DNA of 64,000 nt from a phage. Below the pieces are notes generated by a model. It did no database searches. It was not told where the DNA came from and worked only from the letters and a program-made list of their open reading frames with translations. The translations under genes and the position numbers were made by a program. Location of the stretch: assembly GCA_020241125.1 (NCBI GenBank), contig GCA_020241125.1_4708.1. One strand, 5' to 3'. Below are positions 1 through 64,000 of this stretch, one piece after another (position 1 is the first letter of the stretch; each line of letters starts with the position of its first letter).

Positions 1-1704
1 CGTATCATGAACGTTTGCCTGTGCCCAGTCTTCCCACAGTTCTTCACTACCACTTACTAAACTCGAACCGAGACGAACGGCGATTTTATTTAGTGGTTTG
101 ATTGGGTCACTGTTGATTGTCTGGATAAAATGGATGGTGTAACTGCTCAATGTCTTAAGCAGCTGCAGCATTCCGTATTGAATATCCTTAAGACTGGTGA
201 CATCTTCCAAATCCTGGCCGGTGGCCTTTGTGAAGATATCGAGAGCCAGAATACCCGCCTCTTCTTGACTGATTGCGTCAAGCTCCCAATCCATCGATAA
301 GAACCATTCCTTGTAAAGCTGTCCAATACCGAAGTCGACACCAACATCCATGTAGAAGTTTTCAACGATTGCTTCAGCCATGCCTCGAGCTTGATAATGT
401 TCTTGGAGCTGATACATGAACTGATGGCGACGCCAGCCCTGGTAAATCTCGGTAACGGCGCTCAGAAACTCTTCAGTACTGACGACAGCACGCAGCGTCA
501 CTTGCTTATCCAAACACCACCAGATCAGTTTATCGGGAATGATAGCAGGATCGGTAATGCTACGGAGATGGTCGAATGTCGGTAGCGTTAACACCCTGAC
601 GTGGTTAGCATGGATCTTAGGTACTTCAATCAGCGTCATGCCCATCGAATAGTTCAGCAAATACAAGAACAGCTTGTATGCATCTTTCATCGACATCGTC
701 ATGGTATCACCCGTCACCGGGTTGGTTGTCGTTAACCGTGACTGATACATGCCTATCGCGCTAAGATGAATCCATTCGTTCAGCAGGAAATCATACTTAG
801 GATACAGTTCACTGTCTGTAAGGTCTTCGGCTTCACTTTCCAACACCTTGGTCGTTAAGGTATTGTTGTCATGCATCGACATCTTCTCTATCGTGCGGTT
901 AAGCTCGGTATAATACTCCGCTTCGTTATCCCGCGCTAAAGGGAACTGTTGCTGCATCACGGTGGTGACCTTACGTCTTACCGTGCCATTACCGACGATC
1001 TCTTGAAGGTTAAGCGGTTTACGCTCCATGTAAACAGCAGGTTTTAACGTCTGGGGTATCTCGGAAGCGTCTTGTTTGATCGAGAACGCACCGATTGGAA
1101 TTCCACGATCGGTTAATACCTTTTGAATGAGCTTATCGTAGTTTTCCGTTCTGCCCATGTTTCTTTCAACGTAAGCGATGTTACGATAGAACCAGAGCAT
1201 TTGGGATTCGGTCATGTATCGCTTGAATCGATCGAGACCTTGATGGCTTGCCAGATAACTCCAGATATGGAAGCTATGGGCATAATGGGTATGACAGTTT
1301 TCCCAACGAATACCTTTTATCATCTCAGGTATTTGTGTGAATAGGATGGCGTATAGCGCAGGCCAATGAAGCATATCGACGCTCTCGTATGCCGGATGTT
1401 CCCAGCGTCTGAAGTAATCGTCGATTTCTTGCTGTAAACGTGGAATAAGATTGGCCTCGCGTGACTCAACATCTTGTGTATCGTACCAGAGAATCTCATG
1501 ATTGCGTGCCGCAATTGCTTTCTCGATATCGATGGGGTTAAGGATACCCAAGATCAACATACGTTGTTCCGGGTACCGCGCAATTAAACGATTGAAATAA
1601 TCTCCACCATACGCGTACTCCCTTGCCGTCATGCGATGCCGTAACATGTTTTCCTTAGTGAACTCGATCTCTTCGAGCGTATCCAGGGAATTTACGGTCA
1701 TCAT
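1..1704 (-). CDS. hypothetical protein, N-terminal part (start ATG 1704; gene continues past window start)
   Basis: Manual translation gives a stop-free minus frame from 1704 to position 1 (MMTVNSLDTLEEIEF...); in-frame stop upstream at 1786-1788; absent from ORF track because truncated. Confidence 0.55.
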   Translation of the reverse strand, partial: MMTVNSLDTLEEIEFTKENMLRHRMTAREYAYGGDYFNRLIARYPEQRMLILGILNPIDIEKAIAARNHEILWYDTQDVESREANLIPRLQQEIDDYFRRWEHPAYESVDMLHWPALYAILFTQIPEMIKGIRWENCHTHYAHSFHIWSYLASHQGLDRFKRYMTESQMLWFYRNIAYVERNMGRTENYDKLIQKVLTDRGIPIGAFSIKQDASEIPQTLKPAVYMERKPLNLQEIVGNGTVRRKVTTVMQQQFPLARDNEAEYYTELNRTIEKMSMHDNNTLTTKVLESEAEDLTDSELYPKYDFLLNEWIHLSAIGMYQSRLTTTNPVTGDTMTMSMKDAYKLFLYLLNYSMGMTLIEVPKIHANHVRVLTLPTFDHLRSITDPAIIPDKLIWWCLDKQVTLRAVVSTEEFLSAVTEIYQGWRRHQFMYQLQEHYQARGMAEAIVENFYMDVGVDFGIGQLYKEWFLSMDWELDAISQEEAGILALDIFTKATGQDLEDVTSLKDIQYGMLQLLKTLSSYTIHFIQTINSDPIKPLNKIAVRLGSSLVSGSEELWEDWAQANVHDT

Positions 1705-1926
1705 TGTCTGACAAGGATGATACTCGCCAGCGAGATTCATGTAGTATAACCACGTGCGTGGGTCGTCCCCGACGGCCATCTGGTAGACTTCGGAAACCTT
1801 GAGGTTTAACCGTTCTGCCGTGATGTCGCTTTTAATAATCAGGGTGTCCGTTAGACGCTGCACGCTTTCCGAATAAAGCTGATAGTCAGTGTTGGACACG
1901 ATCGGTCCTCCAAGGAGCCAGTGTAA

Positions 1927-4836
1927 ATGAACGATATAAATAAAGGGCGCGTCGCCCTCGAACGTCAAATGAGCAATAATGACGTTGCGAAGGCACTCAT
2001 GAACAAATTTGTCGCTCCTGCTCCGCAGTCACGTCTTTATAATACACGTGATGCGGAAGGAGCGAACGGTCGTTTCGGGTTAGTTGTTCCCGACCAAATG
2101 ACGATGAACACGGTTACGCGTGCGACCGCGACAAACATCGAGGATAATAAAAACATCCTCGAGCTGTTCCCTGAACTTAAACGCGTGATGCAGATCTATG
2201 TTGCCGCGTTGACGAACCCTAACGATCTTAAGACGGTCGAGATGTTTATCGACAGCGAAGATTTCCCCGGCAGAGTCGCAGAAATCGTTCAGCCGATGAT
2301 CGATACCATCGACACGCATTTTAAGAATATCTATAAAATAAAGACGCTTATCCCTCGTATCATCGAAGACGTCTTCTTTATCAAGGGCAGTTATAACTTC
2401 GTTGTTCTGCCGGAAAGCACGCTCGACCGCGCCATTAATGGTAACGGTCAACTGAAACTTGAAGAATACGGATTTAAAGACAACCATTTTGCAAGTTGGG
2501 GGCTTCTAGGTAACGACAGTCGCAAACGCCACGAAAATCAATTACCTGCGACGGTTTCGATGGAAGATTATTTCTCGGGTGTTAATGAAACCATACCGTA
2601 CGATCCTGTTGTTCGCATAGACAGCATCAAGTTTACCAATACCCTGCTTCGCGATAAGGACGGTAAATTCATTGAAGCGAAGATCGATATTCCGGATATG
2701 GTTACGGTTGTCGATAACCCAGACATCCTCCGCATGCCTATTCTGCATCAACGTCGAGCAGCGACAGCAGTGCAGCGTGCGTTACGCGCAAACACGTTAG
2801 GAGGTAGTGGTTTGGTAACGCTGTCAGGCGATCCGACCCTAACCGCTAACCGACGTGAGCTGTCGCAAGAACAGGTTAACGAGATCTGGAATAAGCTCAA
2901 CATCCAGCGCCACACCAAGGTATCGCCCGTTTACGCGCTGGCAACCCCAGATACGCTTGATCGTCAAAGCGTTGGCCATCCTGGCGTGATGCATGTACCA
3001 CCTGAGGCATTAGAACCCGTACATGCGCCCGGTGATCCTGAGAACCATATCGGGTATTTGGTTCAGTTGGATGAGTTTGGTTATCCAGTACGTTTGGTTG
3101 AAGATGCGGCGTATTACAAGCAGTTGGAAGGTCGGTTGTCGAAGATCACCGCAGATATCGCAGGTACGTCAAGCAACGGCATGGCGAGCGAGATGATTGG
3201 TGCAGCCAAGAACATGATCCAAGGTACGTCATGTAATCAGGTAGACATGTCGGCCTTCGTATCATCGTACGAATCGCTGATGCAACGTTACATTGTCGAA
3301 CGTATCGTTAACGGTTATCTTGGCAGTGCGGTGGAGATCGGTGCGACATCATCGTTTTATCTGTCGATGCTTGCTCGTAGCCTCGCTCACAAGCAGACCC
3401 GTGTTTTGTTTATTCCTCGAGAGATGGTGACTTACATCGCCTATGAATACAACAAATACGGTATCGGTCGTTCGCTGCTTGAAAGTACGAAGATGATCTC
3501 ATCGCAACGAGCCATGCTCATGGTTCAAGAACTGATGGCGAAAATCAAAAGTTCGTTGAACTATACGACGCTAAGCGTAATGCTTGAAGACACCGACAGA
3601 AACCCGGTCGATACCGTCGAACAAGCACTGCATAGTTTCGCTCGTGTCTACCAGTCTGGTTTCCCGTTGGGTGAAACTAACCCGATGGATATCATCAACG
3701 CGTACGAACGAAGCTCGATTCGATTGAAGGTTGAGGGGAATAACCCACGCTTCCCGAAATTGAATACAGACGTCAGTGTTGAGCAGCGTAACTATCAGTC
3801 TCCTGATAATGAGCTGATGGATCGTTACCGTCGTGACCATTTCATGGGCTTGGGTGTGTCTCCGGAGATTATCGATACTTCCTACCAATCTGAATTCGCA
3901 GCTTCTGTGATTACAGCTAACGCGATGCAAGAGAAACAGTTCACGGTTTGTCGTGAGGTGATCACGAATGGGTTATCGGACCACATCAAGAAATATACGG
4001 CATACAGTCCCGTGTTGTTGACGTCGTTACGAAACACGGTTCGTGCGAACATGTCTAAGCTTTCCCAGGCACAATTGAAGCAGCTTTTTGGTAGCGATTT
4101 CGAAAACGGTGTTATCCGTAACGTTAACGCCTATCAGGAGATTGACGACCAATCAGCAACAATGGATCTGGATTACACTAAACCAGAAGTCCAGGAAGTT
4201 ATTGCCGATGCTTATGTGTCCATGTTCTTAAACAGCCTGCGTGTGCGTTTACCGGATAGCAATGCCCGTCGCCTTGAAGATCAGGTACGTGAATATAATC
4301 AGTACAAGGAAGCGATTACTGCGCAACTTGATGATTATTTAACGCCTGATTACGTCATGGGTCTGGGTGGGGTTGATGAAACAACGCTGCAGATGATCCG
4401 CGCATGCATTATTGGTACCGCGATGCGTACGTGGGCAAAAGAGAACAACTTCAATCAGGAGCTGGCTGATCTCTTCAGTCTTGACGATAAGAAGAATGCC
4501 GTGCAAGATTGGAAACGTATGTCCATGGAACATATTGAAGTCATGGGTAAATGCATGGGTGATTTTGCATTGTATATTCAGAATCTGACGAAGAAGATTG
4601 AAGAGAAGATGGGAGCTCAAGCACAGGACGGTAGCGTTTCATCTGATGGTTCGTGGTCATCCGATTCAAGTAGCGATACCGGTTCTTCTGATGACTTCGG
4701 TGGCGGTGACGATTTCGGAGATACCGATTTCGATACCGAAACGATGGAGGAAACCTCAACAGAAGAAACAACCACATCTGAGGAAACGACTACCGACACA
4801 ACGTCAGAAGACGATACTTCAGGTGACATTGTCTAA
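1927..4836 (+). CDS. large hypothetical virion-type protein (969 aa) with acidic Ser/Thr/Asp/Glu-rich C-terminal tail
   Basis: Long ORF; AAGGAG 9 nt upstream of ATG; C-terminal ~70 aa low-complexity (SSDSSSDTGSSDDFGGGDDFGDTDFDTETMEE...); portal-like size but no motif recognised. Confidence 0.8.
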   Translation: MNDINKGRVALERQMSNNDVAKALMNKFVAPAPQSRLYNTRDAEGANGRFGLVVPDQMTMNTVTRATATNIEDNKNILELFPELKRVMQIYVAALTNPNDLKTVEMFIDSEDFPGRVAEIVQPMIDTIDTHFKNIYKIKTLIPRIIEDVFFIKGSYNFVVLPESTLDRAINGNGQLKLEEYGFKDNHFASWGLLGNDSRKRHENQLPATVSMEDYFSGVNETIPYDPVVRIDSIKFTNTLLRDKDGKFIEAKIDIPDMVTVVDNPDILRMPILHQRRAATAVQRALRANTLGGSGLVTLSGDPTLTANRRELSQEQVNEIWNKLNIQRHTKVSPVYALATPDTLDRQSVGHPGVMHVPPEALEPVHAPGDPENHIGYLVQLDEFGYPVRLVEDAAYYKQLEGRLSKITADIAGTSSNGMASEMIGAAKNMIQGTSCNQVDMSAFVSSYESLMQRYIVERIVNGYLGSAVEIGATSSFYLSMLARSLAHKQTRVLFIPREMVTYIAYEYNKYGIGRSLLESTKMISSQRAMLMVQELMAKIKSSLNYTTLSVMLEDTDRNPVDTVEQALHSFARVYQSGFPLGETNPMDIINAYERSSIRLKVEGNNPRFPKLNTDVSVEQRNYQSPDNELMDRYRRDHFMGLGVSPEIIDTSYQSEFAASVITANAMQEKQFTVCREVITNGLSDHIKKYTAYSPVLLTSLRNTVRANMSKLSQAQLKQLFGSDFENGVIRNVNAYQEIDDQSATMDLDYTKPEVQEVIADAYVSMFLNSLRVRLPDSNARRLEDQVREYNQYKEAITAQLDDYLTPDYVMGLGGVDETTLQMIRACIIGTAMRTWAKENNFNQELADLFSLDDKKNAVQDWKRMSMEHIEVMGKCMGDFALYIQNLTKKIEEKMGAQAQDGSVSSDGSWSSDSSSDTGSSDDFGGGDDFGDTDFDTETMEETSTEETTTSEETTTDTTSEDDTSGDIV

Positions 4837-4859: not shown

Positions 4860-4908
4860 ATAGTTAACCTTCTCCCCAACCCGATGAGGGAAGGGGAGAA
4901 GGGCTATG
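4860..4908. terminator. GC-rich palindromic hairpin (CATA-/-TATG flanked family), between convergent genes
   Basis: CCTTCTCCCCAACCCGATGAGGGAAGGGGAGAAGG; A9 run just 5' on plus gives a U-tract after the hairpin for minus-strand transcripts. Confidence 0.5.
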
Positions 4909-5256: not shown

Positions 5257-7815
5257 TTACTGCTCTTCACGTTCCAGCAGATACTCGGAAGCGGTAATAC
5301 CGTTTACCGTACGTACTGCTTTCAGACGAGTATCATCGCTCAGAATTACAGTAACAGATTGCAGACCTTTTACTTTGGTTTCGAAGGTCTTGAACACCTG
5401 ATCCAGCATACGAGCAATGCTTGGGTTGGTTGCAGCCGATGCGTGGGTGTAACCGCTTTGGTTCAGCTTCAGAATCTTGGCGTTGGTCGGTACGCGAACA
5501 ACAACATGCGGACGCATCGCGAACACGCTGTGATTGAACCAGTAAGCATCGTTGCTATCTTCGTCGGTAACGATGTCTGGATTAACACGCATATCCTCGA
5601 CAGCCGCATCCGCCAAACGACGTTCGATTTCATCGGCGTCCAGAGAGCCATCTTTCTCCAGTTCTGCACGATACTCACTCATGGCAACCAGATGACGTTC
5701 ACGATTCGCTGCGGATTTTTCGTGAGCGGCTTTCAGGTAGTCATGCATGTTGTACAGTTCTGCCATGGAAAGACGAATGTTCCACTGACCTTCGCCGTCA
5801 CGATTGCAGTAGAGACACTTCAGCATGTTGACCCAGGTATAGTAGCAATTGGAGAATTCATCTTCAATGAACTTCTGGTCCATTTTAAGATCGTGAATCA
5901 GCCAACCGGACAGTTCTCCGATATCATCAACGAAGCTAGAGATGGTGGTTTCAGAGAAGTTCTTCGGTACGATACGTTTGATCAGCTTATTGACGTCTTT
6001 GGTCATGCTATCGTTCAGGAAATGCCAAATACGCAGAGGAATAACATCTCGATACTGTTGCATGATCTGACGATAAGCTTTGATATCGTCGCTACGACCT
6101 TTATCAATAGACAACGCATCCAGGAATTCATGGATTGCATCCAGCTCTTTGTCGGTATAGGTTCCCAGATAGGAATTGACGGTGGCAAGGAATGCTAATG
6201 CGTCGTTTTGGTTAACGTCGGTGTTGGTCTGCTGAATGATTGCCACTGAAGCTTTGGTTTCAGCATCCTCAACGCTTGACGCTGCGATTGCGTCGGTGAC
6301 GGTAAACAGTTTCATTTCGCGCTGCTCACCGACAACGATTGGCTCACGTTGAACCGGTTTGTTAAGACTAACACGAACAACTTCTGCTTGCGCGATGCGA
6401 TCCAGTTTTGCCATTTCCTGCTCTGCCATACGACGAGCGGTTGGATCTGATTCAAGTTCGATGTATTCCACTTCTTCCTCCGTGAGGGATGTAATGTCAA
6501 CAATGGTTTCATGAAGAATTCCGTTTTCGTCGATACGTGCTCGACGAGCGAAGTGCCTGAAGTCATACAACGTCGGCCAACGACTATTAGGTGCAAAGTC
6601 TTTGGCTTTCAGACGCATCTGCATAAATTCTTCATGTTGAACAACACGACCGTAACGCTTAGCATCTTCGGTCGCATCAATTGGATTAACGGTCTTTGTT
6701 ACCGTAGCAGAACGAGCCGTACGAACGGGTTCCGGTTTCACCTGCGCAGGTTCAGGTTGAACGGGTTTCTGCTGCCCAGCCTTAACATGCCATTCTGGCT
6801 CTTCGTACTGCTCAGCAAATTGCTCAGCCGCTGCAAAGATATCGTTGATACCACCAATATCTCCTTCAGGATTTGTCGAGTAAATCCGTGGTTGTGGTGC
6901 CTCGTAACGCGGTGCTGTAGTAGCAGGTACCTCATCAACGATAGGATCGTCATCACCAACATCATACAAACGGTTGAACACACAATCCTTCGAATCAATG
7001 TACGATGGCGCTTGTGGTTGGACAACCGTCGGCCGAGGTTGTGCACCGTATCCTGGTGTTGTTGGAGCCATGCCGCGCATAACTGCCGGACTAGGTTGGT
7101 ATTGCGGTTGCGGATAGGTTCCACCATACATGGCGTACGCAGGCTGTTGTGGTTGACCATACCCGCTGCTAACCATCGCGCTTGCTTGCGGCCCACGATA
7201 AGTCATCCCCATCTGCATCACCTGCTGCTTCAAACCACGTGACTTCTGAGCGATTTGCGCTAGGCTTCCGCTTTTATTCAGCTGCGTGTACTTATTCGCG
7301 GCTTCCGGGTTAATGCGTGATAATTCAATCGCGCGATAATATTCCGGGTACTGATTCGGTTCAAAGAGCCACGTTACAAGATGATACAGCGCAACTGTAC
7401 TCACGGCAGCAGAGACGATCTGGTCATCGGACGCGTTCTGCGGCATCGGGTTGATGTAAGAGAACACGTTCCAACAACAGTCTTCAACAAGAGATTCCAT
7501 CATCATATCGTTATTGGTATAACGTGCGACGAACTCGGTTTGTATTTTGTCTTGCTGAGCGAAGTCTTTCAGGACATTAAAGATGGCTTGACGGATTTTG
7601 ACGATCGTCGCTTCTTGGGTGATGAAGTTATAGTTCTGCTGATATGAGGGTTGTTGGTATTGTGGTGGTTGATAGGCGTTATTCGGGTATGCGCCGTACG
7701 GCGATTGCTGATACTGTTGCTGACGAACCTGTTCAGCCGCATAATTAACCGTGCTCGTATAAGGGTTTTCGCTATAACCCATTTGTTGATACATGTTGTT
7801 ACTGCCATTATACAT
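5257..7815 (-). CDS. hypothetical protein (852 aa) with Gln/Tyr/Pro-rich low-complexity regions
   Basis: Long ORF; N-terminus MYNGSNNMYQQMGYSENPY...QPPQYQQPSYQQNY and internal GYGQPQQPAYAMYGGTYPQPQYQP. Confidence 0.8.
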   Translation of the reverse strand: MYNGSNNMYQQMGYSENPYTSTVNYAAEQVRQQQYQQSPYGAYPNNAYQPPQYQQPSYQQNYNFITQEATIVKIRQAIFNVLKDFAQQDKIQTEFVARYTNNDMMMESLVEDCCWNVFSYINPMPQNASDDQIVSAAVSTVALYHLVTWLFEPNQYPEYYRAIELSRINPEAANKYTQLNKSGSLAQIAQKSRGLKQQVMQMGMTYRGPQASAMVSSGYGQPQQPAYAMYGGTYPQPQYQPSPAVMRGMAPTTPGYGAQPRPTVVQPQAPSYIDSKDCVFNRLYDVGDDDPIVDEVPATTAPRYEAPQPRIYSTNPEGDIGGINDIFAAAEQFAEQYEEPEWHVKAGQQKPVQPEPAQVKPEPVRTARSATVTKTVNPIDATEDAKRYGRVVQHEEFMQMRLKAKDFAPNSRWPTLYDFRHFARRARIDENGILHETIVDITSLTEEEVEYIELESDPTARRMAEQEMAKLDRIAQAEVVRVSLNKPVQREPIVVGEQREMKLFTVTDAIAASSVEDAETKASVAIIQQTNTDVNQNDALAFLATVNSYLGTYTDKELDAIHEFLDALSIDKGRSDDIKAYRQIMQQYRDVIPLRIWHFLNDSMTKDVNKLIKRIVPKNFSETTISSFVDDIGELSGWLIHDLKMDQKFIEDEFSNCYYTWVNMLKCLYCNRDGEGQWNIRLSMAELYNMHDYLKAAHEKSAANRERHLVAMSEYRAELEKDGSLDADEIERRLADAAVEDMRVNPDIVTDEDSNDAYWFNHSVFAMRPHVVVRVPTNAKILKLNQSGYTHASAATNPSIARMLDQVFKTFETKVKGLQSVTVILSDDTRLKAVRTVNGITASEYLLEREEQ

Positions 7816-53938: not shown

Positions 53939-53940
53939 GA

Positions 53941-54931: not shown

Positions 54932-55432
54932 TTACTCTTCTGTGTTTTCATTGTCAGGATCGTAGTGGAATTCGAACAGCCCTGAACCGTCGTGTCCGTT
55001 GATTGTTAGTATAACGGGCATATCGAATCCTCGGACACGCGAATGAAAACATTGTGCTAATTTTAGTTTGGCGTATGCCGCTACTTCATTGACAGCAATA
55101 CACGATTCACCTGTTATACTCAGTATAACGTCGATACTAACAATGTTGTCGTGCAACGCAAAACGCCAGCGATCGATACGATTATTATCTTTATCGGTTG
55201 TCTCGTTTACGAGATAGACTTTATCGTCAACCGACAAAGCGGGACTCCAGCAACGATCGTTTATTAAATTCGCCTGGAGTTTTAGTATCGTCTGATCGAT
55301 AATATCCCAACACGTAACCAGCGTGGTGTCAGGCACTGAGTAGAGAAGGGCGTGCACTTTATCCTTTATTTTAAGTGCTTCCGCAGGACGTCCGCAAATA
55401 CCATGCATTTCGACTTTCTTATTCATATTCAC
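54932..55432 (-). CDS. hypothetical small protein (166 aa)
   Basis: ORF; C-terminal FEFHYDPDNEN motif. Confidence 0.65.
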   Translation of the reverse strand: MNMNKKVEMHGICGRPAEALKIKDKVHALLYSVPDTTLVTCWDIIDQTILKLQANLINDRCWSPALSVDDKVYLVNETTDKDNNRIDRWRFALHDNIVSIDVILSITGESCIAVNEVAAYAKLKLAQCFHSRVRGFDMPVILTINGHDGSGLFEFHYDPDNENTEE

Positions 55433-55470
55433 TTCTTTCTTAATCTAAATGTTAGTTGGGGGTGGGATGC

Positions 55471-56103: not shown

Positions 56104-56171
56104 TTAATGATGAAAAGCTGTAAAAAAAGGTGGGGCGAACCCCACCAAAACGTCAGACACACGCGGGAAAA

Positions 56172-56597
56172 TTAATTCAGTGATGCATATAAGGCATAAC
56201 GACTGTAGATCTCAACCGCCGGTCCGTTATGCGTTAACAGACCGTCTCGGCTGTAATACTGGAAAAATGAATAACGTTTGTCGAAGTGATAAACAAAAGC
56301 AATGTCTTTGCCGTCAAAACCTGTGATGCGTGGTCTGTTTTTATCTAGCAATGCTTTGACTTTTAACAGTGTTGCCGCACGTGCTTTAACGTTAGGGATC
56401 AAGCCATCACAATCGATATAAACAGTGTAACCTGTTTCAGATGTTGCGACGGTCGTATTGCGATTGACGCGGAAGATTTTTGTTTCGTATGTACTATCTT
56501 CAAGAATTGGGTTTTGTTTTTCGTATTTTCGTTTACGCAGAAATTCTACAACGGTGATATAGTTAGCGGTAATATGCCCGGTTATAGCTTGTAACAT
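56172..56597 (-). CDS. hypothetical protein (141 aa), preceded by conserved 31-bp motif
   Basis: ORF with AAGGA SD 8 nt upstream. Confidence 0.7.
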   Translation of the reverse strand: MLQAITGHITANYITVVEFLRKRKYEKQNPILEDSTYETKIFRVNRNTTVATSETGYTVYIDCDGLIPNVKARAATLLKVKALLDKNRPRITGFDGKDIAFVYHFDKRYSFFQYYSRDGLLTHNGPAVEIYSRYALYASLN

Positions 56598-56665
56598 CTT
56601 GACATCCTTTTATATTGGATTGGTTGCAATTGTCTTAAATAGATGATAAGATATTTTGCTCTTAT

Positions 56666-56696
56666 CACTAAGGTAATGTAGTCGCGAAATAAACTG
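56666..56696 (-). promoter_or_regulatory. conserved ~31-bp motif, copy 3 (candidate phage promoter)
   Basis: CACTAAGGTAATGTAGTCGCGAAATAAACTG; between hairpin 56719..56770 and ATG 56597. Confidence 0.45.
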
Positions 56697-56718
56697 CGTT
56701 AACACGAAATAAAAAACA

Positions 56719-56770
56719 GCATAGAACCCTCCTCCCACATCCTTCAAGAGGACGGTGGGAAGAGGGAGAG
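56719..56770. terminator. GC-rich palindromic hairpin family member
   Basis: CAGCATAGAA-CCCTCCTCCCACATCCTTCAAGAGGACGGTGGGAAGAGGGAG. Confidence 0.45.
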
Positions 56771-56771
56771 A

Positions 56772-57173
56772 TTAAATGTCGTGGACGGCAATGCCGTTTA
56801 ACCAGCAATACAGCTTAACGCGACAGGAATACCGCTTCGTTGCGGCAACCATTTCATCGCGTAAACGCTGGTATATTTCATCCTGGTGTTCACGATCAAT
56901 GGGGTAATCAGCCCAACATTCGATCATGACGTCACCATTCGTCAGAATCGTCGTACGCATCCTGTCCTGGATACGGCGGTCTTTCCCGGCATTAGGGAAA
57001 TACATTCCTTCAGTACGAATAAGGTCGCCGCAAGGCATGACTAACCATTCGTTCGTTTTGCCGGTATTCTTATAATCCATTACAGCTTGCATTGCGGTGT
57101 CAACGCTAAAAGAAACATAATTCCAAACGGATGTCCAACGATAGATTGCGGGTTGTTCGAGTGTTTCGTTCAT
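56772..57173 (-). CDS. hypothetical protein (133 aa)
   Basis: ORF. Confidence 0.65.
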   Translation of the reverse strand: MNETLEQPAIYRWTSVWNYVSFSVDTAMQAVMDYKNTGKTNEWLVMPCGDLIRTEGMYFPNAGKDRRIQDRMRTTILTNGDVMIECWADYPIDREHQDEIYQRLRDEMVAATKRYSCRVKLYCWLNGIAVHDI

Positions 57174-57387: not shown

Positions 57388-58014
57388 TTATGCGAAGCGA
57401 CGCATGTAACCTGCCAGATAGTTACGTGTATCGAAGTAAGCAATTTCAGGAATTGCGATATTAAGGTCGATAGCACGGATTTCAACCTGGCGACGGCTTT
57501 CATCATAGATCGCATCCATCAGACGCAGTACTGTCAGGAAAGCCATGCGGGTATGGTAGTCCAGCGGCATGTTATCGATGCCACGATACAGATAACGGTT
57601 TGCATTAAATGCTCCTTCGCTGTTATCTTTCCAGATCTTCAGAATATCAGCAAAGGCGGTGCGGAAAACCTCAGGATTATCCACATCCAGTAACGCACGG
57701 AAGGCAGACATTAAAGACCGCTGATGGCGGATCAACGACTGCGGTGTTTGCGGCATGGTCGGACCCATTTCTTCCGCATATTTCTGGAACGGGGCAACCA
57801 GGGTTGCGGCACGAGAAGCCACGATAGAAACAGCAGGCGATTCTTTCACCGCTGGTTTCGCAGGCTTTTCTTCAACAACGGTTTCCTTCTTCTCAACAGC
57901 GACCGTTTCCGGCTGTGCTACAACATCACCAACCGGAGCATCTGCAACGGTGGTTTCTACCGCAGTAATCTCCTCGTCCATTTTTGCAGAACGTTGGTCT
58001 TTATTCTTGCTCAT
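57388..58014 (-). CDS. hypothetical protein with Ala/Pro/Val/Glu-rich N-terminus (208 aa)
   Basis: ORF immediately downstream of beta-prime-like gene. Confidence 0.7.
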   Translation of the reverse strand: MSKNKDQRSAKMDEEITAVETTVADAPVGDVVAQPETVAVEKKETVVEEKPAKPAVKESPAVSIVASRAATLVAPFQKYAEEMGPTMPQTPQSLIRHQRSLMSAFRALLDVDNPEVFRTAFADILKIWKDNSEGAFNANRYLYRGIDNMPLDYHTRMAFLTVLRLMDAIYDESRRQVEIRAIDLNIAIPEIAYFDTRNYLAGYMRRFA

Positions 58015-58039: not shown

Positions 58040-59341
58040 TTAACTAATATAAAGTTCGGGATCGTAAGGCGCTAACGATACACTGGCGTTATGCATTGCT
58101 TTCATCATAGTGTTCATGAAAACGTTGTTTACACCGGTGATCTCTGCCCCGATCGCGTCTGGGGTTGGAGCCATCGCGTTACCGCAACAGGTAGCACAGT
58201 ATTCCAGTGGGCCTGCTTTACAACGTTGAGGATCACGTAACTTGATGGTCTGTCCTTCCAAGGAAGCAAGTAATTCAGCATCAATAAGTTTAAGCGCTGC
58301 GCCGTCGATCATGTAACGGCCGACAAGCAGCTTATCTTTGATATGATCGCGGTTTACCGTGAACAGAATATGTTCGTGGGTACCACAGTCGTCCATCGTG
58401 ATTTTAAGGTTCTGTGTCGCACGTTGTGATTCTTTCGCCGTCTGTCCCGCTAAAGCGGTCAGTGCGCCACGTGAGAACGAACCTGCACGTGCGCTGTTGT
58501 TGTACTCCGCCCAATGGTCGACACGCATCCCTTCAGCCAGGCTGTGTGTGATAACGTTACGTTTACCAGGGTCAACGAAGTCGGCTTCAACCCCCATCAT
58601 GATGTGCGTTTTCTTTCGAGTATTACCGAAACTCTTACCGGGGTTAATATAGAACCCTTCCGATTCATCACCCTTAAAGGATTCCTTATCCATTTTGGTC
58701 AGCGTGGCTTCGAGTTTGATCAGTTCTTCAGGCGTGAACTTACCTTCCTCTTGTAAGCGTGCTAACTCTTTATCGCGATAGGCAATAATATCATCATCGA
58801 CCGTTAACGCTTTATCACTCATTGATGGAACAATTAAACGGTTGATAGCGGTTAACGCACTAATATTGTTGGTGAATTTCTTCACTTCGCTTGCGTACAA
58901 CGGACCAATTGGACGTTCGTTAGGATCGGGTATTCCCTCTTCAGGATCGTCAGCGACGCGTGGCGCAATCAGTGACTCCAGTGTACCGCTGGTCAACCGT
59001 CCTGCCTGGTATTCAATCTGAATACCGAAAGCATCATAAAGGACGTACATATTGAACAACGCTTCACCGAAGGTTGTGGTGGTTGTATTCTTAACCGACG
59101 GTAGATCACCAGGTGCAAGCTCCAATGGCTCCCAGAAACTCAACAGGGGTTTTGTTGGCTCGGTTTCCCATTGGTGTTCTTCACCGTCGATGGTAACCGT
59201 AACGACGTTACCTTGACGACGTAATTTAGGCTGATACTTCTCAGCGCCGCCTTCCGTAAAAGCAAATGCGTCGTTAATCCATTCAAGATAACGGTAGTGC
59301 CCTTCACGCATCGCGTAAAGGAAATATTCACGAGGTGTCAT
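58040..59341 (-). CDS. multisubunit RNA polymerase beta-prime C-terminal-like subunit (433 aa)
   Basis: Exact DDCGTHE motif; segment GSFSRGALTALAGQTAKESQRATQ aligns to the beta-prime bridge helix region; CATCCG near C-terminus; no NADFDGD, so this is a split C-terminal piece. Confidence 0.75.
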   Translation of the reverse strand: MTPREYFLYAMREGHYRYLEWINDAFAFTEGGAEKYQPKLRRQGNVVTVTIDGEEHQWETEPTKPLLSFWEPLELAPGDLPSVKNTTTTTFGEALFNMYVLYDAFGIQIEYQAGRLTSGTLESLIAPRVADDPEEGIPDPNERPIGPLYASEVKKFTNNISALTAINRLIVPSMSDKALTVDDDIIAYRDKELARLQEEGKFTPEELIKLEATLTKMDKESFKGDESEGFYINPGKSFGNTRKKTHIMMGVEADFVDPGKRNVITHSLAEGMRVDHWAEYNNSARAGSFSRGALTALAGQTAKESQRATQNLKITMDDCGTHEHILFTVNRDHIKDKLLVGRYMIDGAALKLIDAELLASLEGQTIKLRDPQRCKAGPLEYCATCCGNAMAPTPDAIGAEITGVNNVFMNTMMKAMHNASVSLAPYDPELYIS

Positions 59342-60323: not shown

Positions 60324-60797
60324 ATGCCAGTTTCATCCAAACCAAGAAAAAAATCCGTAGGAAACCCTAAAGCTCAGGAAACAACAGCAATTCGTTGGGA
60401 CGAGTTACGTGAACCTATCGAAAACTGCGAATTGTTATTAGGTACCCTGGGTGCAGCTATTTACCAAGCGACGCAACCCTGTCGTTTACGATTAACCCAA
60501 AACAAACGTGATGAGTTCGTTGCATTATCAACAAGCACGAATAAAGATCTGACCGAACTTCAAACCGAGTTGACGACGATCAAGAACTCCATCACGCCGA
60601 TGTACGGTAAAGAAGTTGATGAACAAAGTATTCTGTTACAGTACAACTACGGGATGTCGTTAATGAACATCCTGGAACGCGCATCCGATATTCTGCGTCC
60701 TGACGTTGCACGCCTAAGCCAGCTGCGTGTCGAAGGGATGGAGAACCAGATCCGATTCGCTAACAGTGTTAAATCTCAAGGAGCCACCGAAGCATGA
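60324..60797 (+). CDS. hypothetical protein (157 aa)
   Basis: ORF with AGGAG SD; 4-nt overlap with next gene. Confidence 0.65.
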   Translation: MPVSSKPRKKSVGNPKAQETTAIRWDELREPIENCELLLGTLGAAIYQATQPCRLRLTQNKRDEFVALSTSTNKDLTELQTELTTIKNSITPMYGKEVDEQSILLQYNYGMSLMNILERASDILRPDVARLSQLRVEGMENQIRFANSVKSQGATEA

Positions 60798-62458
60798 GCG
60801 AACAAGAAAAAGAAGTCGTGACGAATCAGGAAGCCGTTGAGCGTTCAGAGTCGTCCGTTGAAACAACGATTCCGGCAAGTTCCGAGCCTGTTGGTTCCAC
60901 ACAGCAGGAAAGTAAAGACGAAGTAGTGGCTCCAGAAGCAACCCGTGAAGAAGAACCATCACATCCACCGCTGGTCGATTTCTCGAAGGCAACGATACGT
61001 TTCCAATGCGAAGACATTCGTCCTAAGAGTCCGAAGAAAACAAAACGTCAGCCGTTGGTGTTACCGCTGTATTCTCCACGTGTGCAGACAACGTATTACC
61101 GGGAATACATCAACGAAGCAATGGATACCGTGCAAGCCATTGTCGCTCAACGCGGTAAACCGACAGACGAACAATTTGATAAATTCAGTAAAGCGGTGGT
61201 GCAATCGGTTGCTGATGGACAATATCATCCGCGTGGCCCAGCTCACGATCGCGCCTTGGAACGTAAGGGCAGTCAGTGGACTAACGTACCCGTAGACTCA
61301 TCGGGTGTTGGTCGCGTTATTCCTGGCATTCCACAACCGAACCATATCCCTGATGATGTCGAAGCGCCGCTGACAGGAACCGATGCGATCTATTTTGCCA
61401 TCCGTAATACGAAATCAGGTGCGCCTGCGGTAATGCCGTTATGGCATAGCGGTATTAAGCTGCAGTTTAATCCGCCGTCAAATGAACGTGTTGCAATTAT
61501 GCACGAACGTATTGCACGCGATAAAATCCTGGGTGGACGTGATAGTACCGGTTTCCTGTTTTCAGCAACCTCGATTATCACCATGAAGCACGCTATCGAA
61601 TTAGCATTAGAATGCTGCTACATGGCCAACGTACCGAACCTGGATATCCAGCGTTTGAAAGACATTATTCCGGTTACCGATGTTCCAGCGTTATTGCTGA
61701 ACGTGCTGGTAACCATGTACCCGTACGGATATCCTTACGTACAGACCTGCTATCAGAATCCAGAAACCTGCGACTATCGTGTTGAAGATACCGTAAGCTT
61801 TGCGAAACTCTATCAAGTTGACAACAGCGCGATAACCAAACGTATGCGACAGATCATGACCGAAGGTCCGGTCATGACGGATGAACTTTTGCGTGAGTAT
61901 GCAAACGAACTGGGTGAAACAAACTCCCGTACGCTGGATCTGTCCGACAACGGTTCTGTTATCATTGAACTTGAAGTACCGAAGATTTCACGTCAGATCG
62001 CCATGGGCGAACGCTGGTTAAGCGATACCCTGGAAGATCTGCGTGATATTCTATCGCGTCCGTCAATGACCGAAGAAGAGCGTGATCGTGTTATTCGTGA
62101 ACGTCAGTTCTATAGCTGGATGCGTCAGTATGATGCGTGGATCAAATCGATGCACGTGTCAGTAAACGGTACCATGCGTCGTGTAAGCGATGCAGATACG
62201 GCAACGGTATTAGCACAGCTGTCACGAGACAGCGACCTTCGTGAACGTTATATTGACGGGTTGATGCAATTCATCGGTGATTCGACGATTGCGCTCGCAG
62301 CGATGCCTGCCTGGAAATGTCCGAAATGTAATGCCGATATTGCTGACAATCTGCGTGACCAGAAATACTACGATCTGATTGCTTTGGATGTACCCCAGCT
62401 TTTTTTTACCCTAAACTCCGTCCAATCTCTTCAGGAGGGGATGGACGCGGTATTCTAA
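60794..62458 (+). CDS. hypothetical protein (554 aa) with C-terminal CPKC element
   Basis: ORF with GGAG SD. Confidence 0.75.
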   Translation: MSEQEKEVVTNQEAVERSESSVETTIPASSEPVGSTQQESKDEVVAPEATREEEPSHPPLVDFSKATIRFQCEDIRPKSPKKTKRQPLVLPLYSPRVQTTYYREYINEAMDTVQAIVAQRGKPTDEQFDKFSKAVVQSVADGQYHPRGPAHDRALERKGSQWTNVPVDSSGVGRVIPGIPQPNHIPDDVEAPLTGTDAIYFAIRNTKSGAPAVMPLWHSGIKLQFNPPSNERVAIMHERIARDKILGGRDSTGFLFSATSIITMKHAIELALECCYMANVPNLDIQRLKDIIPVTDVPALLLNVLVTMYPYGYPYVQTCYQNPETCDYRVEDTVSFAKLYQVDNSAITKRMRQIMTEGPVMTDELLREYANELGETNSRTLDLSDNGSVIIELEVPKISRQIAMGERWLSDTLEDLRDILSRPSMTEEERDRVIRERQFYSWMRQYDAWIKSMHVSVNGTMRRVSDADTATVLAQLSRDSDLRERYIDGLMQFIGDSTIALAAMPAWKCPKCNADIADNLRDQKYYDLIALDVPQLFFTLNSVQSLQEGMDAVF

Positions 62459-62550: not shown

Positions 62551-62880
62551 ATGAAACTGAACATCGAAATGGGTATTGCGTACGATACCATGTTTGGCTT
62601 GTACGATCGTGTTAACGACTGGACGCCGTTGAAATGGGTTGCTCAGCATCCCGCTGAAGATCCCTGGGACAGATTGGGGATTAAACCCTTAATCGAAGAT
62701 TATGTCCGATTCGGTATTAAAGAGTTCATGACGCTGGATGCGTTTTTACAAGCACCGTATCCTTACGCGCAAACGGTACTCAAAATCGCACAAGACGAAC
62801 TGCGGAAACGTAGTGCGGTACTGGACGACGATGAGGACAAGTTACGACGAGAAGAAGAACGTTTACGAAACGGAAAATAA
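62551..62880 (+). CDS. hypothetical protein (109 aa)
   Basis: ORF-track start is TTG 62521; ATG 62551 chosen. Confidence 0.55.
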   Translation: MKLNIEMGIAYDTMFGLYDRVNDWTPLKWVAQHPAEDPWDRLGIKPLIEDYVRFGIKEFMTLDAFLQAPYPYAQTVLKIAQDELRKRSAVLDDDEDKLRREEERLRNGK

Positions 62881-62881
62881 A

Positions 62882-63391
62882 ATGGCGAGATTTACCAGTT
62901 TGATTGGGTTGGATATTTGGGAAACACCGGCTGACGTTCGGGTTATTCCTGTTAACACCGTCGGTGTGATGGGACGTGGTCTTGCCAAACAGGCAGCCGA
63001 TCGTGTACCCGGTCTTCTTGAAGCGTACCGTAAGCAATGTCAAGATGGGTTTAAGGTGGGCGAAGTCGTGTCGTATCAACACGGTGATAACGATCAACTC
63101 ACCTACGTGTTGTTTCCATCAAAATCGGATTGGCGTGAAAGAACACGACGCGAGTATATCGTTAACGGTTTACTGGCGTTAAAAGCATGGTTACTGGAGC
63201 TTCAGTTCGAAAGAGACGGCTTCTCATATCGGCGTCCGGCTGAACCGCTGATCGTTGCAATTCCTCCGGTTGGTTCTGGTTGCGGTAATATCGGTTACGG
63301 ACAATCCGAAACAATCCAGCCTCAGTGGGTACGCGCACAAATCAAACAGTATCTTGCCACCGTACCGAACGTTCATTTCTACTTGTTCTAA
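62882..63391 (+). CDS. macro-domain protein (ADP-ribose binding/processing fold, 169 aa)
   Basis: GLDIW...VRVIPVNTVGVMGRGLAKQAADRVPGLLE matches macro-domain N-terminal blocks (GDIT...VNAAN...GGGV); LIVAIPPVGSGCGNIGYGQ matches the second macro motif; starts 1 nt after upstream stop. Confidence 0.7.
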   Translation: MARFTSLIGLDIWETPADVRVIPVNTVGVMGRGLAKQAADRVPGLLEAYRKQCQDGFKVGEVVSYQHGDNDQLTYVLFPSKSDWRERTRREYIVNGLLALKAWLLELQFERDGFSYRRPAEPLIVAIPPVGSGCGNIGYGQSETIQPQWVRAQIKQYLATVPNVHFYLF

Positions 63392-63831: not shown

Positions 63832-63840
63832 GTGTTACCC

Positions 63841-64000
63841 TCAACGATTCTTCATCACTTTACCCAGGCTTTCGATATTATCCCAAAAGCGATTTTTACT
63901 TGGCGCATCGCCGACGATAACCGACATCAAATCACGACGTTCGCGACTGATGATGCCTTGTGATTTCCAGATCACCATCGTCCAGCAAGCGGCCAGAACG
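63841..64000 (-). CDS. hypothetical protein, C-terminal part (gene begins beyond window end)
   Basis: Manual translation gives a stop-free minus frame from window end to TGA at 63841-63843. Confidence 0.4.
   Translation of the reverse strand, partial: VLAACWTMVIWKSQGIISRERRDLMSVIVGDAPSKNRFWDNIESLGKVMKNR

Follow-up and report, generated by a model that had tools for sequence, protein, structure and literature searches.

What kind of phage does a 64,000-nt stretch of phage DNA (here termed the window) come from? A preliminary description had proposed a phiKZ-like jumbo phage. This was borne out by a relative, phage Goslar, with ~95% identity, by 17 phiKZ homologues, and by four markers of group 1 jumbo phages. 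Since Goslar is so close, the term "phiKZ-like" understates the kinship.

Kinship with Goslar and phiKZ

By megablast, Goslar was the sole match (2 records, 94.5 to 97.7% identity, 84 to 98% of each query covered). Blastn against its genome yielded 5 aligned pieces with 77 to 98% identity that covered 60.2 kb; in total, 94% of the window aligned, at a DNA identity of ~95.4%. Positions 31979 to 94037 of the Goslar record (NC_048170.1) were colinear with the window, with the order and orientation of the genes conserved from gp35 to gp85, and all genes from gp36 to gp84 had an orthologue in Goslar, mostly with 97 to 100% protein identity. With a genome of 237,307 bp, Goslar belongs to the nucleus-forming jumbo phages and to the genus Goslarvirus; the Goslar papers place it in the family Chimalliviridae, and the GenBank taxonomy line gives the genus alone. 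Its chimallin (gp246, record positions 171003 to 172898) and PhuZ (gp234) are encoded elsewhere in its genome, and chimallin, PhuZ, terminase, and RNA polymerase subunits other than the two described below were not found within the 64-kb window. We conclude, with a probability of about 97%, that the window stems from a nucleus-forming Goslarvirus jumbo phage, distinct from Goslar but very closely related to it. It covers a conserved core block with virion, replication, and RNA polymerase genes. Phage records up to August 2025, IMG/VR, and complete E. coli genomes (searched with a 4-kb piece) gave no match close enough to be this same phage. What we observed is homology, synteny, and the presence and enrichment of motifs; by analogy with Goslar, the phage would form a nucleus and carry a genome of >200 kb (its relatives measure 237,307, 237,533, and 243,814 bp).

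Given that most proteins are 97 to 100% identical, the window might be Goslar itself, with the differences reflecting sequencing or assembly noise. This is very improbable, as the 60.2-kb alignment contained ~2,800 mismatched or gapped columns, and divergence was patchy, with 74 to 77% identity within gp65 and gp56 against 98 to 99% elsewhere. The indels were also structured: 1.77 kb with two intact genes, the precise absence of a 1762-nt intron, and 1.6 kb plus 0.55 kb in an island of small genes. Moreover, orthologues of the extra genes occupy the corresponding site in a second Goslar-like genome, a 243,814-bp contig (ABEBTY010000001.1) of Shigella sonnei assembly GCA_021016215.1. This contig kept the gene order of the window over the 20.9 kb compared, from gp39 to gp53, and its DNA identity to the window of 84 to 89% marks it as a more distant lineage.

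The first of these indels (window positions 17614 to 19386) has no counterpart in Goslar, which retains a 62-aa remnant, gp47. The two gene products matched each other (E 4.5e-17) and no Pfam or PHROG family, and their homologue in phage records was the Goslar remnant only; the Shigella assembly contig encodes orthologues of 295 and 260 aa, and protein cluster P0001, from public read sets, was 98% identical to the product of 17630-18532. Goslar has therefore lost the two genes. In the array of small genes, positions 52316 to 53950 and 54407 to 54953 had no Goslar counterpart and the aligned parts were 77 to 88% identical; at 52.3 to 55.0 kb, small genes are additional or replaced relative to Goslar. 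No Pfam family was found in this array, which holds two pairs of paralogues (52307-52705 with 52743-53138, and 53941-54405 with 54402-54860). These pairs, the extra-gene pair, and gp55, gp56, and gp57, which matched one another directly, bear out the earlier mention of several paralogue families. The near lack of intergenic space was equally apparent, with genes occupying 60,602 of the 64,000 nt (~95%) and 3,376 nt intergenic. No tRNA was found in the window, and Rfam at gathering scores gave nothing in it or in Goslar 64-95 kb.

Homologues in phiKZ (NC_004629.1) were identified for 17 window genes by tblastn, including the three whose products had been singled out for this comparison, namely, the capsid protein (gp120, E 4e-49), the virion RNA polymerase subunit (gp80, E 8e-46), and the DNA polymerase (gp82, E 2e-63). 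Fifteen of the 17 matches followed the phiKZ order as one inverted block, from gp123 down to gp77. The homologues of gp128 and gp129 (gp35 and gp36) lay at the end of the block where they were expected, with their own order and divergent arrangement kept, and the macro-domain gene was displaced relative to phiKZ. The window contains the phiKZ-specific Pfam families PF25620, PF12699, PF25618, PF20307, PF24214/PF24215, and PF23971, and its array of PF12699 internal-head or ejected proteins is a Chimalliviridae feature. All four group 1 markers of Iyer et al. 2021 (PMC7824862), that is, a multisubunit RNA polymerase, a divergent family-B polymerase, a divergent DnaB, and a phiKZ-type capsid protein, were present. 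In tblastn searches, matches were found in 311 phage records for the virion RNA polymerase subunit and in 230 for the capsid protein; beyond Goslar, all were below 60% identity and, among the matches listed, ~20 to 33%, with examples from genomes of 184 to 307 kb.

A jumbo phage with multisubunit RNA polymerases but no nucleus, such as an AR9/PBS1-like phage, would agree with weak matches to 7S00_D, from the AR9 non-virion polymerase structure (E 0.008), and to AR9 (25% identity, 45% of the query). Such an origin has hardly any chance of being correct: the AR9 identity is marginal beside ~95% DNA identity to Goslar, which is demonstrated to form a nucleus and encodes chimallin, and the similarity of the capsid protein to the phiKZ capsid family extends along its whole length.

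Table 1. Features of the window and their coordinates (positions in nt; aa, amino acids)
Feature	Position	Strand	Basis or remark
Baseplate upper-wedge protein, 3' part of gp35 orthologue	1..1899	-	Colinear with Goslar gp35 CDS
Portal protein gp36 (phiKZ gp129)	1927..4836	+	969 aa; 99.7% identical to Goslar gp36
Same-family hairpin between convergent gp36 and gp37, putative terminator	4861..4906	.	RNA folding
gp38, at the position of phiKZ gp124	5257..7815	-	852 aa; 98.7% identical to Goslar gp38
Non-virion RNA polymerase subunit, phiKZ gp123 homologue	7850..9646	-	PDB 7OGP_E, phrog_2943, tblastn
Predicted phiKZ-type terminator 3' of capsid gene	11319..11360	-	C/T-rich hairpin, then TTTCTATGCCGT
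Major capsid protein, phiKZ type (Goslar gp41)	11460..13682	-	740 aa
Vertex-binding complex protein gp42 (phiKZ gp119 homologue)	13832..14452	-	100% identical to Goslar gp42
Divergent DnaB-like replicative helicase	14492..16102	+	Pfam PF20307 divDNAB; phiKZ gp118
Same-family hairpins between convergent genes, putative terminators	16128-16172, 41704-41748, 51194-51237, 63403-63445		
Two paralogous genes (17630-18532, 18618-19391), ~300 and 257 aa	17630..19391	-	Both absent from Goslar
Spike cap gp48, gp49, stopper gp50, tail terminator gp51	19532..24372	-	99.1-99.6% identical to Goslar
Terminator-type hairpin 3' of gp53	24791..24834	-	Folding and consensus scan
Six internal-head/ejected proteins gp53-gp58, including a 1125-aa protein	24837..34811	-	PF12699, paralogy
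Predicted phiKZ-type terminator 3' of gp58, type copy	33424..33472	-	CATAGAA-CCCTCTCCCAACCC-GTAA-GGGAAGGGAGAGGG-GATATG
Vertex-binding gp59 (phiKZ gp91 family); packaged/injected gp60, gp61	34876..37451	-	Pfam, phiKZ matches
Tail-tube initiator gp62; baseplate wedge gp63 (997 aa)	37486..41688	+	Pfam, PHROG, phiKZ
gp64 (930 aa); vertex-binding complex gp65 (931 aa) and gp66; gp67	41751..49178	-	85-99% to Goslar gp64-67
N-terminal subunit of split divergent family-B DNA polymerase, intron-less	49400..51151	+	583 aa
Array of 12 small genes, 131-255 aa, partly paralogous	51238..57173	-	Most variable region versus Goslar
Capsid decoration protein gp77	57388..58014	-	94.8% identical to Goslar gp77
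Virion RNA polymerase subunit, beta' C-terminal-like (Goslar gp78)	58040..59341	-	433 aa
Conserved protein gp81 (phiKZ gp77 homologue)	60794..62458	+	554 aa; phrog_4585 E 6e-67; phiKZ gp77 E 7e-33
Macro-domain protein (phiKZ gp104 homologue)	62831..63391	+	Pfam PF01661 E 1.4e-5; phiKZ gp104 E 1.5e-18
Further co-directional terminator-type hairpins	19485-19532, 30718-30760, 52252-52299, 56716-56766, 57217-57265		

Virion and replication genes

The capsid gene product matched Pfam PF25620 (PhiKZ_MCP) over residues 98 to 731 (E 5e-218; 725.7 bits, cutoff 27) and was 99.7% identical to gp41, which forms the T=27 capsid of Goslar (Goslar cryoEM preprint). The preliminary description was right in calling this ~740-aa gene codon-optimised, since its effective number of codons was 30.1 versus 42 to 58 for the other genes of at least 300 codons, with the exception of gp58 (30.0). 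Codon bias thus singles out gp41 and gp58, precisely the pair of proteins most abundant in the virion. The very large proteins mentioned earlier were also present, with lengths of 930, 931, 969, 997, and 1125 aa, in addition to one of 852 aa.

Most of the remaining virion genes can be named from the Goslar cryoEM preprint, which is the source for the baseplate upper-wedge role of gp35, the portal gp36, the vertex-binding roles of gp42, gp65, and gp66 (the latter two with homology to phiKZ gp86 and gp85), the tail and neck roles of gp48, gp50, and gp51, the roles of gp62 and gp63, and the decoration role of gp77. Profile and tblastn matches accompanied several of these assignments: phrog_3222 (E 6e-207) and phiKZ gp128 (35% identity, E 5e-111) for gp35; phrog_3004 (E 8e-161) and phiKZ gp129 (E 1e-70) for gp36; Pfam PF24214 and PF24215 for gp50; and Pfam PF23971 (E 2e-79), phrog_3248 (E 8e-287), and phiKZ gp88 (E 5e-48) and gp87 (E 7e-174) for gp62/gp63. 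The gp48-gp51 region matched phiKZ gp101, gp99, and gp98, and the gp59-gp61 region matched phiKZ gp91 and gp89, with gp59 belonging to Pfam PF25618 (PhiKZ_gp91, E 1e-46). In Goslar, gp60 and gp61 are packaged in the virion and injected. Matches for gp67 were phiKZ gp84 (E 2e-18) and phrog_2767, and for gp38 no PHROG and no Pfam family above threshold was found. The phiKZ internal head protein family PF12699 was recognized in gp58 (E 4e-22, 79.3 bits against a cutoff of 27), with weak, sub-cutoff matches in gp54 and gp57; the Goslar cryoEM data show this fold in all six proteins from gp53 to gp58, with ~2150 copies of gp58 per virion.

Among the non-virion genes, the helicase was assigned to PF20307 (E 1.4e-120, above the 26-bit cutoff) and matched phiKZ gp118 (E 8e-61). 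The family-B DNA polymerase had been described as stopping before motif C, which is correct as to where it ends; it is not truncated, but half of a two-gene enzyme. By eye, the product contains the exonuclease motifs FDIET, NIAFD, and YGVYNLWD and, near residue 510, motif A (DISSSYPN); it stops ~70 residues later, and motifs B and C are absent. This length is normal for the family, because the match to phrog_3011 ("DNA polymerase", E 8e-178) covered profile positions 5 to 570 of 576. Identity to phiKZ gp82 was 36%, and Pfam DNA_pol_B_exo1 matched weakly; a PDB sequence search gave no meaningful match (best E 0.43). The SDTDS motif (motif C) and the Pfam family divDNApol (PF20286, E 2e-204) reside in Goslar gp244, a separate gene whose counterpart would lie beyond the window. 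As judged from these motifs and profiles, the gene encodes one half of a two-gene polymerase whose predicted partner is gp244, and PMC5105663 speaks of a "split subunit DNA polymerase." The 554-aa protein gp81, which had no relative in a PDB sequence search, was considered as the missing half and rejected, the partner being Goslar gp244.

In Goslar, a group I intron of 1762 nt, with an HNH/NUMOD1 endonuclease (gp69), interrupts the polymerase gene, whereas the window copy is uninterrupted. The intron occupies Goslar record positions 81186 to 82947, between exon bases 81185 (last T of GAT) and 82948 (CTC), so that splicing would join GAT to CTC; the corresponding site of the window carries ten synonymous changes. 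Rfam recognized this intron at a relaxed threshold only (44.7 bits versus a gathering score of 50), and it is not listed in the Goslar annotation; the intron-less allele sets its exact boundaries. The usual ICTV guides are ~70% DNA similarity over the genome for a genus and 95% identity over the full genome length for a species. Within the window, similarity to Goslar was at genus level (95.4% over 94%), and identity multiplied by coverage was ~0.90, below 0.95, for a window that represents 27% of a Goslar-sized genome. The phage may represent an undescribed Goslarvirus species that kept the ancestral intron-less polymerase gene.

RNA polymerase subunits and terminator-type hairpins

The preliminary description had reported a beta-prime-like RNA polymerase fragment with an exact DDCGTHE motif. 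The motif was found at residues 317 to 323 (nt 58373 to 58393) and aligned to E. coli beta' residues 812 to 818. The fragment is real, but it is not the only one, as a second subunit gene (7850-9646) had been missed. The first product matched phrog_2962 ("RNA polymerase beta subunit", E 6e-106) over positions 1 to 432 of 433. Its Goslar counterpart, with 99.8% identity, is gp78, which was found in Goslar virions along with four other subunits of the virion polymerase (Goslar cryoEM preprint). The second matched PDB 7OGP chain E ("PHIKZ123", E 2.9e-40 over residues 33 to 560), phrog_2943 (E 1e-119), and, by tblastn, phiKZ gp123 (E 4e-50), a beta-like subunit of the non-virion enzyme that corresponds to a diverged N-terminal half of beta (PMC4666361, PMC8287921). 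By homology, the window encodes one subunit of each of the two phage multisubunit RNA polymerases.

The seven residues identical to E. coli beta' might mark a decayed host rpoC in a bacterial chromosome or prophage remnant. The rest of the protein was only weakly beta'-like (E 0.003 over 67 residues, beta' 758-824), in contrast to its end-to-end match with jumbo-phage subunits in the PHROG profile and in phage records. Moreover, a search of 5,426 complete E. coli genomes with a 4-kb piece (16500-20500) gave nothing, the polymerase subunit was without a relative in 185,579 species genomes, and every gene is a Goslar orthologue or is flanked by such orthologues. The phrog_2962 match, the phage-record matches, the E. 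coli search with the 4-kb piece, and the Goslar orthology rule out a host rpoC pseudogene, and a bacterial origin is the most remote of the alternatives considered, practically without probability.

By analogy with phiKZ and Goslar, the virion RNA polymerase would be injected and transcribe early genes, and the non-virion RNA polymerase would then take over within the phage nucleus, transcribing the middle and late genes with no need for the host enzyme; this timing and the assignment of enzymes to promoters are those expected from the two relatives. Putzeys et al. 2024 (PMC10914365) described the phiKZ intrinsic terminator as a C/T-rich stem-loop followed by YTTATKYYGT. We scanned the window with the 3' half of this consensus (GGGRRGGBYTTATKYYGT, up to 3 mismatches) and obtained 11 matches versus 1.9 +/- 1.3 expected, a number that 0 of 100 shuffles reached. 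All 11 lay on intergenic hairpins. Ten coincided with the 3' arm plus the adjoining flank and included the TAT(G/A) tail; the remaining one (44564-44581) was a hairpin stem lacking the TATG tail. In the whole Goslar genome, CATA/TATG flanks were found on 29 of 47 strong intergenic hairpins versus 6 of 35 coding ones. This enrichment indicates that the transcription logic of the group, as the preliminary description expected, carries over at least for termination. The C/T-rich hairpins followed by (T)TATGYYGT thus probably end the transcription units of the window.

A scan for perfect stems missed this hairpin family because the stems carry a symmetric internal loop; the hairpins were detected by sliding-window RNA folding. 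The type copy 3' of gp58 matched the consensus with a dG of -27.9, and the hairpin 3' of the capsid gene had a dG of -18.5 and 2 mismatches to the half-site, with stem changes in the 84 to 89% identical relative that look compensatory by eye. The five hairpins between convergent genes, all intergenic, had dG values of -26 to -32, two of them with consensus matches (41734-41751 and 63432-63449). Counterparts of 24791-24834 and 30718-30760 are annotated as putative terminators in the Goslar record. The 337-bp gap 3' of the capsid gene (11123-11459) was ~95% identical to the Shigella assembly relative versus 84 to 89% overall, by a rough count in three genomes, and a small RNA in this gap was rejected as a candidate, three genomes being too little evidence.

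Regarding promoters, the phiKZ middle-promoter consensus AAANTTACC had 0 exact matches in the window. Across all intergenic DNA, TATG/CATA was not enriched once composition was taken into account (37 observed versus 31 +/- 5.5 in shuffles), and it was nonrandom solely in its position adjoining hairpins. The element is palindromic, CATA(R)AA-hairpin-(W)TATG, so that TATG directly follows the stem on whichever strand is read. The core of the phiKZ late promoter is TATG, with the G as the start site. As TATG past the stem equals this core, the hairpin elements could be bidirectional terminators and restart points for the non-virion RNA polymerase, coupling termination of one late unit to initiation of the following one. 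This reading, like the separate one of an undescribed species that kept an intron-less gene, is speculative and unlikely.

Comparison with known phages

The window sequence is ordinary and largely explained already, and its kinship with Goslar is of a known kind. Goslar serves as a model among nucleus-forming phages and its virion structure has been published, so nearly every window gene has an assigned or studied orthologue; the identification by itself adds little, and its modest value lies in the comparison. This comparison reveals sequence loss in Goslar through the two extra genes and shows that the phiKZ terminator consensus reaches a genus that infects E. coli. Terminator-type hairpins stand at the same places in both phages. 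Protein identity was reduced in gp56 (79%), gp65 (85%), gp67 (91%), and gp53 (94%), and the hot spots of divergence concern virion proteins that are internal or ejected.

With phiKZ, the window shares the capsid protein (gp120), portal (gp129), DnaB-like helicase (gp118), DNA polymerase (gp82), virion RNA polymerase (gp80), and non-virion RNA polymerase (gp123), at protein identities of 24 to 36%, and in both an array of internal-head paralogues adjoins gp87 to gp91 or their homologues. The two differ in host, which is Pseudomonas for phiKZ and E. coli for the Goslar lineage, and in gp65 of the latter, which is much longer than phiKZ gp86.

Identity of the window and its differences from Goslar

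Among 50,697 phage records, a megablast search with three pieces of the window matched Escherichia phage vB_EcoM_Goslar (NC_048170.1) alone, as GenBank and RefSeq copies, with identities of 94.5-97.7% over 84-98% of each piece. Direct blastn against positions 31979-95000 of the Goslar record gave five colinear pieces (see table), from which an overall identity of ~95.4% across 60.2 kb, or 94% of the window, was calculated. With the exception of gp69, each Goslar gene from gp36 to gp84 (gene numbers without a phage name are those of Goslar and are also used for the window orthologues) has an orthologous ORF in the window, in the same order and orientation. The proteins are mostly 97-100% identical; gp47, for its part, is only a short remnant that corresponds to a longer gene in the window. 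Goslar, isolated from duck dung, has a genome of 237,307 bp and belongs to the genus Goslarvirus (GenBank record); within the Chimalliviridae, it is one of the nucleus-forming phages that have been studied (published Goslar work). The window represents a new, very close member of a known, well-studied phage genus.

The window also differs from Goslar in gene content. Two paralogous genes lie in a stretch to which Goslar has no counterpart, save the 62-aa remnant gp47. Family searches of their products gave no assignment, and the first gene matched only five protein clusters among 5.8 billion sequences. For both genes, translation probably begins downstream of the listed TTG/GTG codons (18610, 19604); ATG codons are found behind ribosome-binding sites at 18532 and 19391. 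Both genes are kept in a Goslar-like contig of 243,814 bp that comes from an assembly of Shigella sonnei, and therefore Goslar has lost them. This contig (ABEBTY010000001.1, GCA_021016215.1), filed as Shigella sonnei, represents a Goslar-like jumbo phage of complete size; over 20 kb, its identity to the window is 84-89%. A carrier state, or else contamination, could explain its presence in the assembly.

At 52.3-55.0 kb, the small-gene island of Goslar is largely replaced. Nowhere does the window vary more than in this small-gene array, which includes several pairs of paralogues. About 2.2 kb of it is missing from Goslar, what does align shows 77-88% identity, and no family was found for the products. 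Identity also drops to 74-88% within gp53, gp56, gp65 and gp67, against a background of 95-99%. Each of the four encodes a virion protein that is internal, ejected or vertex-binding, or else a homologue of a phiKZ structural head protein. The pattern points to recombination with less closely related phages, or to rapid evolution of proteins that are injected.

Coordinates of the features (window positions unless marked otherwise)
Feature	Coordinates	Strand	Remark
blastn piece	1-17613		98.2% to Goslar
blastn piece	19387-50895		94.4% to Goslar
blastn piece	50915-52315		88.1% to Goslar
blastn piece	53951-54406		77.4% to Goslar
blastn piece	54954-64000		95.5% to Goslar
Hot spot gp53	26000-27000		87% DNA identity to Goslar
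Hot spot gp56	31000-32000		77% DNA identity to Goslar
Hot spot gp65	46000-47000		74% DNA identity to Goslar
Hot spot gp67	48000-49000		88% DNA identity to Goslar
Non-virion RNA polymerase subunit gene (gp39)	7850-9646	-
Capsid gene (gp41)	11460-13682	-	740 aa
ORF antisense to capsid gene	11385-13685	+	766 aa
Stretch absent from Goslar	17614-19386
First extra gene	17630-18532	-
Second extra gene	18618-19391	-
Internal-head protein gene (gp58)	33489-34811	-
DNA polymerase gene (gp68)	49400-51151	+	583 aa
Polymerase insertion site	50880-50920		intron-less
Polymerase insert, Goslar	Goslar record 81186-82947 (17186-18947 of Goslar stretch L002)		1762 nt
Polymerase insert, IMGVR_UViG_3300045988_173921	L007 5497-7033		1537 bp
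Polymerase insert, IMGVR_UViG_3300011560_000001	L008 5497-7277		1781 bp
Small-gene array	51794-55432		131-255 aa
Virion RNA polymerase subunit gene (gp78)	58040-59341	-	433 aa
Site of 12-nt loss, hairpin after gp48	19485-19502
Hairpin example	33424-33472
Consensus match on stem only	44564-44581
TTTATTTCGCGACTACATTACCTAGGTGATAA motif	11279-11288	-
TTTATTTCGCGACTACATTACCTAGGTGATAA motif	19454-19463	-
TTTATTTCGCGACTACATTACCTAGGTGATAA motif	56672-56681	-
TTTATTTCGCGACTACATTACCTAGGTGATAA motif	Goslar record 15058-15067
TTTATTTCGCGACTACATTACCTAGGTGATAA motif	Goslar record 187630-187639

Capsid gene and split polymerases

The codon-optimised gene of ~740 aa that the preliminary description took for a putative capsid gene is confirmed as such, its product matching Pfam PhiKZ_MCP over the entire profile (E 5e-218). 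With an effective number of codons of 30.1, the gene stands apart from the other window genes of at least 300 codons (42-58); only the gp58 orthologue (PF12699 internal-head protein), at 30.0, is as strongly biased. These two proteins are the most abundant ones in the Goslar virion, with 1,615 copies of gp41 and about 2,150 of gp58 (Goslar cryoEM preprint), and therefore codon bias tracks abundance. A long ORF runs antisense to the capsid gene; since the family match and Goslar orthology lie on the minus strand, the extreme codon bias is the most likely source of this frame. The many very large proteins and several paralogue families that had been described are present, and gene coverage of about 95% agrees with the near lack of intergenic space. 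In Goslar, the large proteins correspond to the portal (969 aa), a baseplate wedge protein (997 aa), a PF12699-fold internal protein (1125 aa) and a vertex-binding complex protein (931 aa) (Goslar cryoEM preprint). Unlike these, the 930-aa and 852-aa proteins have no assigned role.

The beta-prime-like RNA polymerase fragment proved genuine: the gp78 product carries the exact DDCGTHE at residues 317-323, aligned to residues 812-818 of E. coli beta', and matches phrog_2962 end to end (E 6e-106) and phiKZ gp80 (tblastn, E 8e-46). This stretch holds zinc ligand Cys814 (E. coli beta' numbering), and a C-x7-C-x2-C farther along the phage protein would fit the other zinc ligands. A second RNA polymerase gene, overlooked earlier, matches the phiKZ gp123 chain 7OGP_E (E 2.9e-40). 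In phiKZ, gp123 belongs to the non-virion polymerase as one of its subunits and is homologous, though diverged, to the beta N-terminal half (PMC8287921, PMC4666361), and gp80 is a virion polymerase subunit (PMC8287921); Goslar gp78 was found in virions (Goslar cryoEM preprint). The window therefore holds one piece of each enzyme. By analogy with phiKZ and Goslar, the virion polymerase, including the gp78 product, would be packaged and injected to transcribe early genes; the non-virion polymerase, with the gp39 product as one subunit, would be among the early products and would act within the chimallin shell, on the middle and late genes. The window consists for the most part of late structural genes.

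It had also been noted that a family-B DNA polymerase stops before motif C. Indeed, the product contains exonuclease motifs and motif A (DISSSYPN), ends ~70 residues past motif A, and has neither motif B nor motif C. A truncated gene was rejected, as the protein covers positions 5-570 of 576 of the phrog_3011 profile and motif C is on a separate subunit. The phiKZ group is known for a "split subunit DNA polymerase" (PMC5105663), and Goslar gp244, the second subunit, gives a full-length Pfam divDNApol match (E 2e-204) with SDTDS as motif C; it adjoins chimallin ~95 kb off, outside the window.

In Goslar, the polymerase gene is interrupted within motif A by an insert carrying the NUMOD1/HNH gene gp69, whereas the window has an intron-less allele. 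The insert scored 44.7 bits (E 1e-9) with the Rfam group I intron model, just missing the gathering score of 50; it is not among the group I introns of the Goslar annotation, which lists two others. T is the last base of the upstream exon and G that of the insert, and a join at GAT|CTC within motif A yields a 583-aa protein identical to the window's at 580 of 583 residues. Two IMG/VR relatives carry inserts at the same site, leaving the window as the only intron-less copy of four examined. The site is thus polymorphic in insert length, with the intron-less state in the minority. All ten codons across the insertion site differ synonymously between the window and Goslar. A possible explanation is co-conversion from an intron donor, or else that the changes protect the site against the homing endonuclease.

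Terminator-type hairpins and promoter-like elements

A palindromic element is repeated in intergenic regions, for example CATAGAA-CCCTCTCCCAACCC-GTAA-GGGAAGGGAGAGGG-GATATG, and the window has about 17 strong intergenic hairpins. In phiKZ, 61 terminators share the consensus BCCYCCCCHWWDGGGRRGGBYTTATKYYGT (ONT-cappable-seq, PMC10914365). Scanning for its 3' half (<=3 mismatches, 100 shuffles) gave 11 window sites against 1.9 +/- 1.3 expected, a number reached in 0 of 100 shuffles. All 11 fall on intergenic hairpins, and 10 cover the 3' arm and TAT(G/A) tail; the other covers a stem only. Hence, the expectation that the group's transcription logic would apply to regulatory elements here holds for the terminators. 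Of this hairpin family, five members lie between convergent genes and the remainder within minus-strand gene runs. Across the whole Goslar genome, CATA/TATG flanks occur on 29 of 47 strong intergenic hairpins versus 6 of 35 coding ones, and the stem after the capsid gene shows, by eye, paired-looking changes in the relative 84-89% identical to the window. A search for transcript-end data from Goslar gave nothing. At the hairpin after gp48, the conserved TATGYYGT tail is gone through the loss of 12 nt (TATGCCGTCCTG), which the Shigella sonnei contig keeps at about 9020-9035.

The phiKZ late-promoter core, (-3)TATG(+1) (PMC4666361), is identical to the TATG that follows the hairpins. This flank also lengthens the stem, and it is found between convergent genes too, where initiation would give antisense RNA; a dual terminator/restart role is therefore only a possibility. 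No exact match to the phiKZ middle-promoter consensus AAANTTACC was found in the window. A second intergenic motif, with consensus TTTATTTCGCGACTACATTACCTAGGTGATAA, recurs on the minus strand in every case, 40-60 nt downstream from terminator-type hairpins; Goslar has five copies of its core TACATTACCT, where about 0.5 would be expected, and each of them is intergenic. The motif is similar, though not identical, to the phiKZ middle-promoter element AAanTTACc. It is a candidate promoter.

Relation to phiKZ and the jumbo-phage group

Tblastn against phiKZ (NC_004629.1) positions 68-146 kb identified 17 homologues among the window proteins: gp35/36 (phiKZ gp128/129), gp39 (gp123), gp41 (gp120), gp43 (gp118), gp48/50/51 (gp101/99/98), gp59/61/62/63 (gp91/89/88/87), gp67 (gp84), gp68 (gp82), gp78 (gp80), gp81 (gp77) and the macro-domain gene gp83 (gp104). 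The phiKZ numbers drop steadily from gp39 to gp81, so that this set of 15 genes is a single colinear block in inverted order. The gp35/gp36 pair lies at the expected block end and retains its own order and divergent arrangement, and the macro-domain gene is displaced. The capsid and RNA polymerase proteins matched 230 and 311 records of the phage collection, respectively; among the matches listed, genomes span 184-307 kb, hosts include Pseudomonas, Erwinia, Salmonella, Vibrio, Serratia and others, and identities are ~20-33%, Goslar excepted. The group markers of Iyer et al. (PMC7824862), namely, a multisubunit RNA polymerase, a divergent family-B polymerase, a divergent DnaB and a phiKZ-type capsid protein, were all found (4 of 4). 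Together with Goslar as the sole megablast match and the 17 phiKZ homologues, these markers support, with high confidence, the original assignment to a phiKZ-like jumbo phage, and the window shows no departure from what is known for the Goslar/phiKZ group.
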